A stretch of 64,000 nt of DNA from a bacterium (GTDB lineage: Bacteria > Zhuqueibacterota > Zhuqueibacteria > Residuimicrobiales > Krinioviventaceae). The position numbers and the translations under genes are program-made. Shown here one piece after another: positions 2,998 to 10,957 of the stretch (positions are counted from its first letter, which is position 1; each line of letters opens with the position of its first letter). Below the pieces are notes generated by a model that made no database searches, had not been told where the DNA came from, and worked only from the letters and a program-made list of their open reading frames with translations. The stretch is taken from positions 5,696,001-5,760,000 of the forward strand of contig OY843751.1 of assembly GCA_963693055.1 (NCBI GenBank), in the 5' to 3' direction.

Positions 2998-4404
2998 ATG
3001 AAAATGAATTTTAAAATTCTTCTCCTCAAAACAGTCTTGATAATGTTTATCTCTCTTTTCTTTTCCCAAGCCAGCATGTCCCAAACAACCACGAAAAAAG
3101 TAACGCAAGACTCTGTTCAAACAATTCAGGATATCTATTTACATACACGGGGCTTACAATACGATAAAAAAGACGGCGACGAAACATTTAGAAAAATTGC
3201 AAATAGTGCATTGTTTCTTCCCCGAATATGCATTGATGGATTACTGTATTCATTCGGAAGCGGTGCAAACTATGTTGAAGAATCGAATATTATTTTAAGA
3301 GCAGAAAATTTTCTCTATTTCTACAATAAAACGCTGGGTTGGTATCCCAAAATAAAATATTCATCAGATTACAAGCTGGCAGTGGGCGCGGCTGTTTTCT
3401 ACAAGCATTCCAACATGAAATACAGTATTGGTGCCTATTATGCAAACCGGAATTATTGGGATGCAAAAATCAGCTCTGTATATATTTTTCGCAACAACGG
3501 CGTCCTCTATAATATCAATCTTTCAGGACAAACCGGTGCGATTGAAGAAATGAAATTCTATGGCTATGGACACAATCCTTTACAGGATTCCCGTAATGCA
3601 ATTCTAAACCCCAATAAAAAATATGGCACTTTTAATCAGGAACGTTCAAAAATTCAACTGGTAACCGGCGCCCAAATCTCGTCACTATGGGAGTTCTTTT
3701 ATACAGCGTTCTATTCAAAACGTAAATTATTAATTCCTGATCCAAACAAAACAAATACTCTTGTGAATGTTTTTGATCTGGAAACACTACCTGGCATCAT
3801 TAATCAATCCAATCTTGAAACCGAGCAACTGTACAATGAATTCTCGTGCCGGTTCGATACCCGCTCGAACGTTAAAGAGTTATCACCCGGTATAAGACTA
3901 GAGGGGTATTGGGGATACGCAACGGGCATGAACATGGATAAAAGCCAATTCATAAGGACCGGGTTTGATGCCGCGTTTTACATACCCGTTATTCTGCGAA
4001 ATCGATTGATTGTACCTCGTATTCTGTTCGACAGCGTTCATAATCAAAACGAAAATTTTGCAATTCCCTTTACCGAATACATGCGCCAACCAGCTTTTCG
4101 AGGTGTATCAAGCCGACATCTGCTTAGAACAGACAATTATTCCATGGTCACGTCTTTGGAATATCAATGGCCGCTCACACAGCATTTTCGCGGACATATC
4201 TTTTATGATATGCTGCTTGTATCGCAGGAATTGAAAAGCTTGACTCTGCATCAAAATCCCTATGCAATAGGTATCGGTTTTGACTTGAACCAGTCACACA
4301 GTGAAATTTCAAGAGTATCATTAACTACCGGTAGTGAAGGATTTAGATTCATCCTGACAATGGGATTATCTGAAACCAATAGTTATAGAAGTAATTGGAA
4401 ATAA
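2998..4404 (+). CDS. Omp85/BamA-TamA-like outer-membrane beta-barrel protein, no evident POTRA repeats
   Basis: Signal peptide, amphipathic beta strands, 'RFDTRSN...PGIRLEG' and lid-like 'FRGVSSRHLLRTDN...SLEYQWPL'. Start inferred at ATG 2998. Confidence 0.65.
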   Translation: MKMNFKILLLKTVLIMFISLFFSQASMSQTTTKKVTQDSVQTIQDIYLHTRGLQYDKKDGDETFRKIANSALFLPRICIDGLLYSFGSGANYVEESNIILRAENFLYFYNKTLGWYPKIKYSSDYKLAVGAAVFYKHSNMKYSIGAYYANRNYWDAKISSVYIFRNNGVLYNINLSGQTGAIEEMKFYGYGHNPLQDSRNAILNPNKKYGTFNQERSKIQLVTGAQISSLWEFFYTAFYSKRKLLIPDPNKTNTLVNVFDLETLPGIINQSNLETEQLYNEFSCRFDTRSNVKELSPGIRLEGYWGYATGMNMDKSQFIRTGFDAAFYIPVILRNRLIVPRILFDSVHNQNENFAIPFTEYMRQPAFRGVSSRHLLRTDNYSMVTSLEYQWPLTQHFRGHIFYDMLLVSQELKSLTLHQNPYAIGIGFDLNQSHSEISRVSLTTGSEGFRFILTMGLSETNSYRSNWK

Positions 4405-4408
4405 TACA

Positions 4409-6049
4409 ATGATAAAAATAAACAGACCCGGACAATCCCATAAACACACATTGAAATCCATACTCTTTTTCGGATTTTTAATATACATCCTTTCTCTCGG
4501 TTGTTCCTCCCGACTTGGCAAATTTAAAGATGCACCTTTAATAACAACCGCAAACGATAAAAAACCGGTGCCTGTACCCAAATCCAGCAATTATGAAAAA
4601 TTATTCTATACCTATGATGTGCTGTTTAGAAATCCTATGGTCAACACATTGGATGTTTCAAAAATACCTCCCGCAATGGATGTTAACGCGGTGGATAATG
4701 TTATCACCTCCAGTTGGTACACACCGCGCCTGGGATTCAGAGACATATCCTCAAAAGAATTGTTACACGGTTTGGAAGAAATTGGGCCGCCCCAAAAGCC
4801 CTTTTATGTGAGTAAAGCCAAAAAAGGTGGTGGAAATCCGGGGTTCATCATCAAAGACAGCAGGGGTAAATCATATCTGCTGAAATTTGATCCCCCGGAA
4901 TTCCCAGGTATTGAAACCACAACGGATCTGATTGTGAGCCGCCTGTTTTGGGGATTTGGATATAATGTTCCCGAAGATTATTTGATCTATTTCAACAAGA
5001 ATGATTTGTTAATAGATGATAAAAGTGAACTTTCAATAAACGATTTAACAGACGTATTACACCAGGTTGCCGAACCCATAGACAATGTGTATCGCGCGAC
5101 TGCCAGCCTGTGGTTGCAGGGCATTTTTCTGGGCCCCATACCGGCAAAAGGGATCCGAAAAGACGATTTGAACGATCGCATCCCGCATGAAAACCTTCGC
5201 ATCCTTAGAGCATTAAAAGTCTTTTGTTCATTTGTGAACCATAGCGACATTCGAATTGACAACAGTGCAGATATCTATACCGGAGAACCCGGTAAAGGTC
5301 ATGTTGAACATTACCTACTGGATTTTGGAGAAGCCTTTGGCGGACATGGTGCGGAGCATGATTACAAATGGGATGGGTTTGAACATTATTTCAGTTACAG
5401 TTCTGCCTTTAACAATTTTATAGCAGCAGGATTAAAAATACATAATTGGGAGAAACTGGAATATACTCCCTGGAAATCTGTGGGTGCCTTTGAGGCAGAC
5501 AAATTTAATCCCGGTGAGTGGAAAGAAGTATACCCCTACCTGCCAATTCGATCCAGTCAACCCGCGGATGATTACTGGGCGGCAAAAATTCTGGCCGCTT
5601 TAACTGATGAGCATATTACCGCGTTGGTCAAAGCCGCTGATTATCCCGAACCGGACGCAGAAGCCTATATGATCAAAACCCTGATCCAACGCAGGGACAA
5701 GGCATTGACATATTTTATGAGCGAGGTAACGCCTATAGAATTTGAATCTGGAAATGAGAGCGAACTGGCCTTTGTTGATAATGAAAATTTACTGTTAGAC
5801 CGTGACAGTGATAAAATAGATTATCAAATAGAGTTGTTAAATCCGCAGGGCGAAAAGATCAAATCGCTTACCTGGCGTAAAACAGACGACAAGCGCATAG
5901 TCATCTCACTTGACAAGGACATAAACGCAAACCGTTATTCAATCGTCCGGATTGCGAAAGTAAAAAACTCTCATATTGCACCCTCTGCCGCAGAGTTTCA
6001 TTTTGTTGTAAACAATAATATAATCAACCTGGTGGGTGTAGTACATTAA
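4409..6049 (+). CDS. Lipoprotein with atypical (HipA/PI4K-like) kinase fold
   Basis: Lipobox LSLGC; Gly-rich KKGGGNPGF; YLLKFD; ETTTD...GYNVP; NHSDIRIDN; LLDFGEAFG. Starts 4 nt after the Omp85 gene. Confidence 0.6.
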   Translation: MIKINRPGQSHKHTLKSILFFGFLIYILSLGCSSRLGKFKDAPLITTANDKKPVPVPKSSNYEKLFYTYDVLFRNPMVNTLDVSKIPPAMDVNAVDNVITSSWYTPRLGFRDISSKELLHGLEEIGPPQKPFYVSKAKKGGGNPGFIIKDSRGKSYLLKFDPPEFPGIETTTDLIVSRLFWGFGYNVPEDYLIYFNKNDLLIDDKSELSINDLTDVLHQVAEPIDNVYRATASLWLQGIFLGPIPAKGIRKDDLNDRIPHENLRILRALKVFCSFVNHSDIRIDNSADIYTGEPGKGHVEHYLLDFGEAFGGHGAEHDYKWDGFEHYFSYSSAFNNFIAAGLKIHNWEKLEYTPWKSVGAFEADKFNPGEWKEVYPYLPIRSSQPADDYWAAKILAALTDEHITALVKAADYPEPDAEAYMIKTLIQRRDKALTYFMSEVTPIEFESGNESELAFVDNENLLLDRDSDKIDYQIELLNPQGEKIKSLTWRKTDDKRIVISLDKDINANRYSIVRIAKVKNSHIAPSAAEFHFVVNNNIINLVGVVH

Positions 6050-6228
6050 ATCCCTGCTGAAATCCTAAAAATAACAAAATGATCAACAACTCTTCGATTC
6101 CAGTCAAAGATCGCCCACGAAACACACGAATAAACACAAAATCTTCTCCGTCCCAAATTCCGCAGACTGTGTGAAAATGAATCATATTAATAAAATATAG
6201 CGTTTTTTTGAAATTTACTATAAATAAG

Positions 6229-6404
6229 GTGGAGTGCATTACTTTTAAGGAATGTGGGCCGTCGAAGACGGCCTTGACAAGATTGTATATTTATAAAAAT
6301 ATTGAACTTATAATGACACTGAAATTACTTGATATTTGAGAATAAAAGCAGTTTTTTTTCGGACCTTTGGTCCGACGCTTCGCATAAACGCGATGCACTC
6401 CAAA
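6229..6404. repeat. 176-bp palindromic REPIN/MITE-like element, copy A
   Basis: Ends GGAGTGCAT...ATGCACTCC; internal hairpins GGCCGTCGAAGACGGCC and GGACCTTTGGTCC. Colinear reverse-complement homolog at 22858-24374. Confidence 0.7.
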
Positions 6405-6848
6405 AACACTATTTTTTCAAATTTTCACACAGTCTATCCGATTTGGGACGGAACGATGGTGCGAAGCTCTGCTTTGCAAAAATTTATAAATTAATTATTT
6501 GTATTTTACACAGTTATCTCCAAGCACAGCTTGGAGCCAACTTTCCTTCCCAAATAAAATTTGGTTAGGAGATTATATGGTTTTTCAACTGTCACCTGAA
6601 GGATACATTTTAGCATACAGTAACATTTCGAGTTACCTCCGGGAGGGGTGTCCAAATTTTGTGCTTCGTGGGCAAAACCCCAACCAAGGGCATCTATTTC
6701 AGTAGATATAAAATCAGATTCCCCATACCCAAAAATATTAACTCTAAATTATACATGAATAAATCAAAAACTCCAAATTTCTGATATATCATATGATGGA
6801 TTGGAGTAAAAAAGAGCACATCCCCTTTTAATTGCCAGACATCAGGAA

Positions 6849-7354: not shown

Positions 7355-9289
7355 TTATAAAATTCTTCTGACCTGAACGGTCTCGGTAATGTGCTTCATG
7401 ATCTCAAATACCTGGTGCGACACATTCCGGTCCACATCCACAATCAAGTAACCGATGGAATCCCGAGTTTGCAATATCTGTCCCTCAACATTGATGTTGC
7501 GACGAGCAAACACGCTGTTGATCTTGGCAAGTACACCCGGCACATTCTTGTGAATGTGCAAAATGCGGTGGGTGTTTTCCACCCGGGGCAGCTCTACCTC
7601 GGGAAAATTGACTGACCCCATTGTGGACCCGGTTTTAACATAACTGATCATTTTCTCGCTTACATAACGAGCAATATTTTCTTGTGCTTCCAAAGTACTG
7701 CCGCCAATATGCGGAGTTAGAATAACATTGGGCATGCCCTGCAATGGCGACTGGAACGGTTCATCGGTACTTGCCGGTTCTGACGGAAACACATCCACTG
7801 CCGCACCGGCAATATGGCCATATTCCAACAACTTGTGCAGCGGCTCAATATCCACAACCCGTCCACGACTGGCATTGATCAGATAACTGCCGCGCTTCAT
7901 ACGCACCAGTTCTTTTTCTCCAATCAAACCACGTGTATCAAGAGTATCCGGTACATGCAGGGTAACCACATCAGAGCGTTCGAGCAGGTCGTAAAGGTCA
8001 TTTACTTTTTGCGCATTACCCAGGGGGAGTTTATCGACAATGTCATGGAACAGTACGGTCATTCCCAGATTTTCCAGCATGATGGAAACCTGCGAGCCAA
8101 TGTGTCCATACCCCACAATACCCACGGTTTTGCCACGGATCTCGCTGCAGCCCTCGGCCTGTTTCAACCATTGACCGGAATGTGCGGCCGCGCTCTTTTC
8201 AAAAGTACGCCGCATCAGCATAATGGTTTCTCCAACCACCAGCTCGGCAACTGAGCGGGTATTGCTGTACGGTGCGTTAAAAACCGGTATTCCTAATGCG
8301 GTTGCGGTTTCAAGATCGATCTGGTTGGTGCCAATACAAAAAGCACCAATCACCCACAAGTCTTTTAAATGGTTCAACACGTTGGCGGTAAGTTTGGTTT
8401 TTGAACGGATTCCCATTACATTGGCATGCAGGGCTTTATCAATCAGCTCTTGTTCACTCCATGCCGGTTGATAACTCGCCACATTGTATTGGGCGCTGTT
8501 TAACCGTTCAATGGCAATATTGTGTACATTCTCGAGGAGAAATACATTTGGGGTATGTAAATCTTCATCACTAAAACCGGCATCTTTGGCTTGCGGCTGA
8601 TATTCTTCTGTAGAGCTGAGAAGCGGCAGCAACTGATCAAAATTATCAATGGTAAAATCCGCCTGCAAACGAATGTCTTCACGATCAATTGTACCCGCGT
8701 AATAGACAAACATTTCCGCAATACCGTTTTTCTTGACAGCAAGATCGGTAACTCCATCTCCAATAATTGCGGTAGGGCCCGTCAACCGTTCCTGACTTTT
8801 CAATTGCTCTGAAACATAAACTTTTCCCAGGGTCATACATAGTGGACCGTCTTCCTGTATACCGAGAATAGTGCCATCATCATTTGTTTGCAGATGTGTT
8901 GTAAATACATTTTCACGGACTATGCCAAGTGCATCCGTAACAGGCAGCACAACAGGTTCGGGACTGGTACTGTAGACAAAAATGTTCTTGTCCCGTGCGC
9001 GCAAAGCATCGAGCGCTTCTTTGATCTTGGGATTTATGGTATTCACAATTGCTTTGGAAACAGCCTCAACATCCTCTGCTTCTAGCTGTGTCAGCGCATA
9101 GCGGCCGCTCATGGCTTTTGTGAGGGGAATTTCACCATTGGTGCATTGCCGGGTCAGGATTTGCATCTGTTCCAGTTTTTCCGTTTTTTCTTTTTCGGGC
9201 AATCTGCTCAAAGCATGCGCAATTAACAGTTCATTGCCTTCGGCATTAATGAGAGTACTGTCAAAATCAAATATAATATTATGAATCAT
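7355..9289 (-). CDS. serA: D-3-phosphoglycerate dehydrogenase with N-terminal HAD (phosphoserine phosphatase-like) domain and C-terminal ACT domain
   Basis: HAD motifs DFDSTL and GDGVTD; PGDH motifs GIVGYGHIG, INASRG, LTPHIGGST; ACT motif HKNVPGVL. Confidence 0.9.
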   Translation of the reverse strand: MIHNIIFDFDSTLINAEGNELLIAHALSRLPEKEKTEKLEQMQILTRQCTNGEIPLTKAMSGRYALTQLEAEDVEAVSKAIVNTINPKIKEALDALRARDKNIFVYSTSPEPVVLPVTDALGIVRENVFTTHLQTNDDGTILGIQEDGPLCMTLGKVYVSEQLKSQERLTGPTAIIGDGVTDLAVKKNGIAEMFVYYAGTIDREDIRLQADFTIDNFDQLLPLLSSTEEYQPQAKDAGFSDEDLHTPNVFLLENVHNIAIERLNSAQYNVASYQPAWSEQELIDKALHANVMGIRSKTKLTANVLNHLKDLWVIGAFCIGTNQIDLETATALGIPVFNAPYSNTRSVAELVVGETIMLMRRTFEKSAAAHSGQWLKQAEGCSEIRGKTVGIVGYGHIGSQVSIMLENLGMTVLFHDIVDKLPLGNAQKVNDLYDLLERSDVVTLHVPDTLDTRGLIGEKELVRMKRGSYLINASRGRVVDIEPLHKLLEYGHIAGAAVDVFPSEPASTDEPFQSPLQGMPNVILTPHIGGSTLEAQENIARYVSEKMISYVKTGSTMGSVNFPEVELPRVENTHRILHIHKNVPGVLAKINSVFARRNINVEGQILQTRDSIGYLIVDVDRNVSHQVFEIMKHITETVQVRRIL

Positions 9290-10408: not shown

Positions 10409-10957
10409 TTGCGAACCAGCTTTTTAACATTTTTTCTTGTGCTTTTTACCGGATGCCTGTTGGCAGCAGAACATGCAGATTTAAATGCTGTAGCAATCAC
10501 GCAAGTGAATCCTTTGGAAAATGACATCCAGGTAACGTTTGAAAATGACGAATCCATCAGCAATTCTCTCTATATTGAACAAGCCGGTATGATGAATATA
10601 TCAAGTGTAGATATTAAAGGCGACAAAAACCGGCTCAATCTTGAACAAACAGGTAACAACAACCTGCTGGAAATAGAGATTGAAGGAAGTAACAATGGCA
10701 AAACCCATTCATCTGATCCGAAACTGTCTGAGGGCATCTCTGTTAATCAAATCGGTAACAACAACAATGCAGACATTTCAATTATAAACAGCAGTAATAA
10801 CAATTTCATTATAAATCAAATCGGTTCCGAAAACCTCGCGTCTATCGTTCAGAAAAATGGCAAAGAGAATATAGTCTTGATTGAACAAGGCGATGGCAAC
10901 ACGGCAATTGTTGAACAGTTTGGCAGTTATAATTCGGTTACTGTTCAGCAGCAATAA
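10409..10957 (+). CDS. Curlin-repeat (CsgA/CsgB-like) secreted protein
   Basis: Signal peptide plus repeated Q-x-G-x-x-N units: EQTGNNNLL, NQIGNNNNA, NQIGSENLA, EQGDGNTA, EQFGSYNSV. Confidence 0.75.
   Translation: MRTSFLTFFLVLFTGCLLAAEHADLNAVAITQVNPLENDIQVTFENDESISNSLYIEQAGMMNISSVDIKGDKNRLNLEQTGNNNLLEIEIEGSNNGKTHSSDPKLSEGISVNQIGNNNNADISIINSSNNNFIINQIGSENLASIVQKNGKENIVLIEQGDGNTAIVEQFGSYNSVTVQQQ

Follow-up and report, generated by a model that had tools for sequence, protein, structure and literature searches.

A POTRA-less Omp85 barrel paired with a kinase-fold lipoprotein and linked to NTT-family carriers: a candidate envelope phosphorylation unit

Introduction

Omp85 barrels without POTRA domains have been described as the noNterm group (Heinz and Lithgow 2014, PMC4104836) and as Leptospira paralogues (PMC11358297); they have 16 strands and a lid lock, and their function is unknown. 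PMC4104836 relates the noNterm group to the Metallo-Omp85 barrels. Here we describe a pair of genes in 64,000 nucleotides (nt) of bacterial DNA (GenBank assembly GCA_963693055.1, contig OY843751.1, positions 5,696,001 to 5,760,000 of the forward strand; this whole stretch is referred to as the window). The first gene encodes such a barrel, and the second a kinase-fold protein with a lipobox. The window barrel shares the strand number, the absence of POTRA and the lid lock with the noNterm proteins, and it appears to fit that group as PMC4104836 describes it. It differs from them in its fixed operon partner, the kinase-fold lipoprotein, in about 65 additional residues of helical character, and in an extended C-terminus with a conserved Trp near its end. 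The word "kinase" does not occur in the main texts of PMC4104836 and PMC11358297.

Enzymes tied to an Omp85 barrel are known from PlpD (patatin) and the Metallo-Omp85 proteins (PF00149), and in PlpD the patatin domain, N-terminal to the barrel, is periplasmic (PMC11116518). Unlike these proteins, the window has two genes, a predicted lipid anchor on the kinase and no POTRA. It also stands apart from the type Vd (patatin-Omp85) systems, with two separate open reading frames (ORFs) and neither patatin nor POTRA. The two-partner secretion systems (TpsB/TpsA) share the gene order, in which an Omp85-superfamily barrel gene precedes its partner; unlike TpsB, the window barrel does not carry two POTRA domains, and a globular lipoprotein takes the place of the beta-helical passenger. 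Fam20C/Fam20B, CtkA, CotH, PI4KII and HipA share the fold of the window kinase (Z 10.8-13.5) and the order of the K, D-x-x-x-x-N and DFG motifs; action outside the cytosol, predicted for the window kinase, is another shared feature, and the N-terminal extension of Fam20C aligns with that of the window kinase. Unlike them, the window kinase has 7-14% identity to the group, no Pfam match, a lipobox, a C-terminal immunoglobulin (Ig)-like domain and a barrel partner. Finally, the NTT/TLC carriers of free-living bacteria (PMC5381601, Major et al. 2017) share with the carriers reported below the PF03219 domain, the HEAT fusion and an adjacent cNBD gene (encoding a domain that binds cyclic nucleotides). 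The available text of that paper names no kinase or barrel neighbours and gives no function, leaving the role of NTTs in free-living bacteria open; the carriers found here mostly have Asp in place of Lys and are proposed to move ATP outward.

Our analysis directly supports both folds, the intact catalytic residues of the window copy, the barrel-then-kinase gene order, and a genomic link to NTT, phosphoesterase, PAP2 and Na/Pi carrier genes. We give an even chance to the reading that the pair is a periplasm-side envelope phosphorylation unit, in which the kinase would be held at its own barrel and fed exported ATP via NTT carriers. Each part belongs to a known structural class; the combination of barrel, kinase and NTT is undescribed in the literature searched, which covered few subscription journals and no supplements.

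Results

Conservation of the gene pair

Both ORFs are intact and real on the + strand and are separated by 4 nt (TACA, 4405-4408). The barrel gene starts with ATG at 2998, and an in-frame TTG is also found upstream at 2962. Both proteins are members of conserved families. The searches yielded 29 barrel homologues among 4690 candidates; for the kinase, 7993 candidates were scored, of which 375 are homologues, and 3268 representatives were obtained at E<=0.001 (50% clustering). The named relatives come from records of Calditrichota, KSB1, Omnitrophota, Gemmatimonadota, Fibrobacteria, Myxococcota and Acidobacteriota. All per-locus pairing and neighbour counts given below refer to the best 80 of the 229 loci found. 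The barrel gene lies immediately 5' of the kinase gene in 75 of the 80 loci, and in 73/73 of those with at least 600 nt of upstream DNA; the barrel was unseen in the other five loci because contig ends cut them. The genome that carries the window holds three barrel-kinase pairs, and its kinase paralogue of the other type lies at G000:C1:2148620-2150299. Longer fused forms of the window kinase (1069-3050 amino acids; aa) were absent among 3906 candidates, although this is weak evidence. In L049, L062 and L080, long ORFs (about 950-1050 aa) were considered as fusions and rejected, being upstream read-through in GC-rich DNA that overlaps the barrel gene. A patatin-Omp85 (PlpD-like) gene stands beside the pair in five loci (L007, L013, L016, L038 and L043). 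Separately, a 1117-aa ORF (L118:310-3663) gives a weak kinase-core match (E 3e-10), after which comes a long stretch of unknown type; the ORF has no Pfam match.

Structure of the barrel

The barrel model (mean predicted local distance difference test score, pLDDT, 77) has 16 strands and no POTRA. Its best structural matches are BamA, Sam50 and TamA, with Z of 20-23, and FhaC and CdiB are tied with TamA at about 20. The top 18 structural rows are all Omp85/TpsB proteins (Z 16-23), which places the protein in the Omp85 fold. Ahead of the barrel the model contains just a signal-like helix and, where a folded periplasmic domain could stand, low-confidence helices, and no POTRA match was obtained in Pfam; the low-confidence helices (residues 43-106) may serve as a docking or plug element. 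The loop-6 RG and the strand-13 FxD motifs, which together form the lid lock (PMC11358297), are both present (Table 1). Neither window protein has a Pfam match at E<=1 or an NCBIfam match. Paralogous barrels match PF01103 and NF047779, the latter at 74-94 bits, which is below the 200-bit cut-off, and the window barrel itself does not match NF047779. A PDB sequence search with the kinase and barrel profiles gave nothing meaningful.

Fold and motifs of the kinase-fold lipoprotein

The kinase model (pLDDT 94) matches CtkA with Z 13.5, a root-mean-square deviation of 3.7 and 228 aligned residues, followed by Hydra Fam20 (13.5), Fam20C (13.4), PI4KIIa (12.4) and CotH (12.1), and by actin-fragmin kinase, MavQ and HipA at Z 10.8-11.4 (HipA 10.9). 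The first 13 structural rows all belong to the Fam20/CtkA/CotH/PI4KII/HipA group of two-lobed kinases, and Fam20C ranks top in Foldseek. Because protein, sugar and lipid kinases tie as the top matches, the fold does not reveal which class of substrate is used. Profile matches to Fam20C (PF06702), CotH (PF08757) and HipA (PF07804/PF20613) were absent in Pfam at E<=1, and the atlas neighbours that bear these families score only 0.78-0.79.

Conservation was evaluated in 113 close homologues, which constitute the window's subfamily, and in a broad set of 135. The window copy carries K159, D280, N285 and D305, that is, the full catalytic set as assigned by motif order and not by residue-level superposition. 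F306 of the DFG motif is invariant (113/113 close homologues). The lipobox pattern, with a Cys after a hydrophobic stretch, was detected in 83/113 close and 85/135 broad homologues, and the motif and its conservation suggest that the kinase is an exported lipoprotein. A reading as a HipA toxin-antitoxin system was dropped, the protein being predicted to be exported and an antitoxin-like neighbour not recurring.

The preliminary description of this DNA, made from the letters alone, is confirmed by these results in what it observed and supported in part in its interpretation. It had placed the two genes 4 nt apart (2998-4404 and 4409-6049), had seen an Omp85 barrel without POTRA repeats, and had expected a dedicated, conserved pairing, all of which agree with the ORFs, the models and the neighbourhood survey. 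Its LSLGC lipobox and ordered kinase motifs are all in place, K159, N285 and D305 being nearly invariant in the subfamily, and its comparison with HipA/PI3-PI4K-type kinases agrees with the modelled fold. The Glu of ETTTD, which it had counted among the motifs, does not hold as a family hallmark: E169 is present in the window copy but in just 45/135 of the broad set.

NTT carriers and other neighbours of the pair

All ORFs of the 80 loci were clustered, and only selected neighbours were identified by Pfam. One recurring set emerged, which consists of NTT/TLC carriers, cyclic nucleotide monophosphate (cNMP)-binding proteins, response regulators, histidine kinases, metallophosphoesterases and PAP2 proteins. 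The carriers, which lie outside the window, are PF03219 proteins (confirmed in 18 of the loci sent to Pfam) and occur in a stand-alone form of about 445 aa and a HEAT-fused form of about 934 aa. Over the 80 loci, profiles made from these neighbours detected NTT in 27, phosphoesterase in 10 and PAP2-like proteins in 9, and a Na/Pi cotransporter with PhoU is found in three (L065, L083 and L084). When only loci spanning at least 12 kb are considered, NTT is present in 19/43, while about 1-2% would be expected by chance within 12 kb, given 2-4 carrier genes in 6 Mb.

Among 145 genomes of the window's own phylum, 36 have the kinase, 48 have NTT and 34 have both. The kinase is present in all 29 genomes with a stand-alone NTT. 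In this phylum, 25/33 stand-alone and 16/51 HEAT-fused NTT genes lie within 12 kb of a kinase gene, and the two are adjacent in 26/36 kinase genomes. In two other phyla, each sampled with 121 genomes and counted with the seed genome included, NTT was detected in 9/10 (after one weak 53-residue match was dropped) and 20/23 kinase genomes, with adjacency in 7/10 and 7/23, respectively. The adjacency recurs across several phyla and gene orders. The window's own genome contains only two PF03219 genes; both come after a paralogous pair that lies at 2.61 Mb and is 3.09 Mb distant from the window pair, and the stand-alone one occupies G000:C1:2607022-2608350. NTT-HEAT genes without a kinase pair often accompany cNMP, regulator and histidine-kinase genes (L097-L100).

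Carrier residues and direction of exchange

The NTT profile matches the structures of AtNTT1 (E 6.5e-30) and chlamydial NTT1 (E 2.9e-35), and it aligns without gaps to the AtNTT1 segment containing K527. AtNTT1 numbering was anchored by the spacing of K155, E245 and K527 in PMC3306366. At the K527 column, the kinase-linked stand-alone rows have Asp in 24 and Lys in 4, with some loci counted twice, and the HEAT fusions have mostly Thr or Gln. The main stand-alone type, including that of the window's own genome, has Asp at the 527 column and Gly at the 245 column and does not show the ATP/ADP-translocase signature; a minority of linked carriers keep Lys at 527 with Asp at 245. In PamNTT1, the substitution K446E at the equivalent position reversed the ATP/ADP preference (Km of 552 uM instead of 8.6 uM for incoming ATP, and of 29 uM instead of 1401 uM for incoming ADP exchanged with internal ATP), reduced Vmax and blocked Pi transport (PMC2606016). 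By extrapolation from PamNTT1 across low identity, Asp at the K527 column predicts exchange of incoming ADP for outgoing ATP without Pi, and such Pi-free exchange would explain a separate Na/Pi carrier.

Other ATP-binding partners of NTT carriers

Kinase-free NTT loci hold a 970-1020 aa protein with the ATP-binding PPDK_N domain and, as judged by eye, a signal-like start, together with two exported genes of the serine-hydrolase (beta-lactamase) fold. This NTT/PPDK_N module is a candidate second exported ATP-using system. The set of NTT or NTT-HEAT, PPDK_N and two exported beta-lactamase-fold proteins was observed in L088-L093, L096, L114-L116 and L119. In L107-L109, NTTs adjoin a 906-932 aa fusion in which a DRH-type kinase-like domain is N-terminal to an Omp85 barrel, as is the periplasmic domain of PlpD, and these loci also carry PAP2 and cNMP genes. 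Thus, three different exported ATP-binding proteins adjoin NTTs, namely the window-type kinase, the PPDK_N protein and the fused kinase-Omp85. The kinase-like motif of the fusions, those of L148-L159 included, reads GG.Q...R..DK...GD.DRH...DRDQAF, and the best PDB sequence match of the fused kinase domain is CtkA (E 0.18). The longest fusions (L143 and L144) combine a phosphoesterase, the DRH-type kinase-like domain and the barrel, so that all three parts of the split loci stand in one protein. Because they also carry a phosphoesterase, the Metallo-Omp85 family likely hides a kinase-like domain that has gone unnoticed. Exported CotH-family kinase genes lie directly 5' of fused kinase-Omp85 genes in L150, L155:3248-6532 and L157:2028-3608, in genomes that gave no NTT match.

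Catalytic Asp in the subfamily of the window kinase

The Asp corresponding to D280 is present in 77/113 members of the window's subfamily vs 118/121 outside it. In each of the ten genomes picked for an Asp-less subfamily copy, the other type is also present, in an Asp-bearing copy. This co-presence carries little weight, because the other type is already found in 8/12 subfamily genomes of the window's own phylum and because six of the ten appear to be close kin; a partnership of pseudokinase and active kinase is thus a lead, not a result. Tandem pairs of both kinase types occur in L020 and L026, and the Asp-bearing copy is the one next to the carrier in five small genomes that also have an Asp-less copy. 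The two carrier-free kinase copies of the window's own genome look intact. In L032, L033 and L035, subfamily copies have His for the catalytic-loop Asn, yet they lie in operons with a phosphoesterase and two NTTs. Third, degenerate paralogues without the Lys, Asp and DFG residues were found in two small genomes (L170 and L169).

Discussion

The envelope phosphorylation reading supposes the following steps. The kinase, CtkA/Fam20-like, would be exported and lipid-anchored, and would dock, on the periplasmic side, to the Omp85 barrel paired with it, which may act as a scaffold or substrate-presenting platform and not as a secretion pore. NTT-family carriers in the inner membrane would swap cytoplasmic ATP for periplasmic ADP, and the window copy would be served in trans by the carriers 3.1 Mb off, beside the paralogous pair. 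The preliminary description had regarded the ATP supply as unknown; a candidate source now exists in these carriers, their transport being predicted from residues. The kinase would then mark an envelope lipid, glycan or protein, and co-encoded phosphatases may reverse the mark while the Na/Pi carrier recovers phosphate. As the acceptor, a membrane lipid or glycan falls a little short of an even chance, an envelope protein is nearly as plausible, and the absence of any acceptor is unlikely. We hold more tentatively, at somewhat below even odds, a wider proposal that free-living bacteria of several phyla possess a dedicated periplasmic ATP shuttle, in which an NTT that the Lys-to-Asp change would turn from an importer of ATP into a carrier of ADP inward and ATP outward would power barrel-docked Fam20-like kinases and, in other places, PPDK-like enzymes that are exported; an active kinase and a pseudokinase would work as partners in it, alongside phosphatases and control by cNMP.

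Several observations weigh against envelope phosphorylation driven by exported ATP. The window locus itself has no NTT, phosphatase or any other recurring partner. NTT is adjacent in 7/35 loci of the window's subfamily vs 20/45 of the rest, and the own-genome paralogue that does adjoin the carriers (L081:12419-14212, G000:C1 about 2.609 Mb) carries Glu instead of the catalytic Asp, and its DFG motif reads DFD. The catalytic Asp is replaced in 36/113 close homologues, and its column requires 14 changes on a FastTree tree with 143 rows (the 113 close homologues in full and 30 from the broad set), vs 2-4 for K159, N285 and D305. As for the carriers, E245K nearly abolishes AtNTT1 exchange (PMC3306366), so the Asp-type carriers, with Gly at the E245 column, may not use ATP; another substrate is equally possible for carriers of this sequence. 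They also score far under the TIGR00769 cut-off. The NTT counts overstate independence, because the profile was built from kinase-adjacent carriers and the genomes are related and mostly fragmented; moreover, NTT occurs without the kinase in 60/111 and 32/98 genomes of the two other phyla, and several NTT loci have none of the kinase, PPDK_N and fused-kinase partners. For the fused kinase-Omp85 family, 11 genomes gave no NTT match and NTT was found in 0/12 fetched loci, a sample drawn again from the window's own phylum that adds no independent NTT count. The profiles of the split and fused kinases gave hhalign probabilities of 1.0% and 10.7%, that is, weak homology.

The loss of the catalytic Asp also feeds a rather unlikely alternative, namely that the window's subfamily is an ATP-binding pseudokinase or regulator working with an active paralogue, so that the window Asp is kept but maybe unused. 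Fam20A is such a pseudokinase regulator of Fam20C. D280 has been lost repeatedly in this subfamily only, with the ATP and metal ligands retained, and the ten genomes with both types and the tandem pairs are as this alternative predicts. The window copy and two thirds of the subfamily keep every catalytic residue, however, and the co-presence is diluted by the base rate and kinship noted above. This alternative alters the role of this copy and leaves the idea of ATP in the envelope intact. A little less probable is nucleotide scavenging or sensing, in which the barrel would admit nucleotides from outside, the lipoprotein bind them, the NTT import them, and phosphatases and Na/Pi carriers harvest the phosphate. 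Characterised NTTs are mostly importers (PMC5381601), the neighbours include phosphoesterase, Na/Pi cotransporter, cNMP-binding and two-component genes, an Asp-less ATP-binding form would suit a binding protein, and Lig E, in the text available, is an exported ATP-using enzyme with no known dedicated carrier. Yet the catalytic Asp, needless for a pure binder, is kept in 118/121 distant members, the barrel retains its lid lock, and an Asp in the K527 column would be expected to work against the uptake of ATP.

The preliminary description had favoured a translocator/effector pair, in which the barrel would flip or secrete the kinase to the surface, where outside or host ATP would be used. The strict one-to-one operon pairing does resemble two-partner secretion, FhaC and CdiB are among the barrel matches (Z about 20), and the secreted CtkA and MavQ are among the closest kinase folds. 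We nevertheless consider secretion via the barrel unlikely: POTRA is absent, the lid-lock motifs are kept, the partner is a lipoprotein whose model shows no two-partner-secretion domain, and the linked inner-membrane carriers would supply the periplasm, not the surface. The precedent cited there, type Vd export of patatin, falls because the PlpD patatin domain stays periplasmic (PMC11116518). Just as improbable, in our estimate, is a pair that is independent of ATP export, with NTTs that carry NAD, ADP or a cyclic nucleotide and a kinase that uses leaked ATP or another donor. The divergent carrier residues, the NTT-HEAT genes without a kinase pair in L097-L100 and the NTT-free genomes with fused kinases would fit this, but the stand-alone NTT coincides with the kinase in its distribution (29/29 in the own phylum), and the adjacency extends across phyla and gene orders.

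To our knowledge, the periplasm is commonly regarded as being without usable ATP. If envelope phosphorylation by this pair were true, it would link this supposedly ATP-free compartment to the puzzle of NTTs in free-living bacteria (PMC5381601), and POTRA-less Omp85 barrels would gain a first function besides assembly or secretion. The wider proposal of an ATP shuttle, if it held, would amount to a bacterial parallel to phosphorylation in the secretory pathway and would supply the role that these carriers have lacked in free-living bacteria. The natural Asp in the stand-alone NTT constitutes a built-in prediction on the direction of ATP/ADP exchange. That no characterised function exists for the pairing, as the preliminary description had said, agrees with the literature searched.

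Features of the locus and of the window

The coordinates of the features are summarized in Table 1. The neighbours of the locus are a divergent rhamnosidase gene and, on the opposite strand, unrelated genes. A scan for promoters and terminators gave signals not above those of shuffled sequence, and no RNA run was listed among the sequencing runs.

Table 1. Features of the barrel-kinase pair (window positions) and of kinase-Omp85 fusions at other loci (locus positions).
Feature	Position	Strand	Basis
POTRA-less (noNterm-type) Omp85 barrel gene, 468 aa	2998..4404	+	ORF, 29 homologues, 16-strand model
Signal-peptide-like N-terminus (basic start, hydrophobic core)	2998..3081	+	by eye; model helix 5-25
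Short N-terminal helices (residues 43-106) instead of POTRA	3124..3315	+	pLDDT 43-61; conserved R51, P75
16-stranded Omp85 barrel domain, residues 113-455	3334..4362	+	structure model and structural matches
Loop-6 lid-lock motif FRG, residues 367-369	4096..4104	+	27/28 close, 62/64 broader barrels
Lid-lock partner FxD (FYD, residues 402-404, strand 13)	4201..4209	+	F402, D404 invariant; 27/28 close, 47/64 broader barrels
Kinase-fold lipoprotein gene (predicted export), 546 aa	4409..6049	+	ORF, homologues, model
Lipobox LSLGC, Cys32	4490..4504	+	Cys in 99/113 close, 96/135 broad homologues
Gly-rich loop KAKKGGGNPGF, conserved K138, G141, G145	4814..4846	+	homologue alignments
Beta-3 lysine K159 (LLKFD)	4883..4885	+	111/113 close, 126/135 broad homologues
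Catalytic loop D280-x-R-x-x-N285 (DIRIDN)	5246..5263	+	N285 in 111/113 close homologues
DFG metal-binding motif, residues 305-307	5321..5329	+	D305 in 112/113 close, 130/135 broad homologues
C-terminal Ig/fibronectin-III-like domain, residues about 440-546	5726..6046	+	Z 8-9 to FN3/Ig chains
Kinase-Omp85 fusions	L107:6272-8992, L108:9401-12148, L109:10334-13132		unannotated kinase-like domain
Longer fusions with N-terminal phosphoesterase	L143:870-4724, L144:1483-5298		PF00149 E 9e-5 in L143; none in L144

Downstream of the kinase stop codon, positions 6050-6560 form an AT-rich non-coding stretch of about 500 nt, in which inspection by eye suggests a long, imperfect inverted repeat, at about 6147-6215 and at about 6400-6450. 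Positions 7355-9289 (- strand) encode a SerB/SerA-like fusion of a HAD phosphatase and a D-2-hydroxyacid dehydrogenase with an ACT domain, and positions 10409-10957 (+ strand) encode a lone curlin-repeat protein in a patch of low GC.

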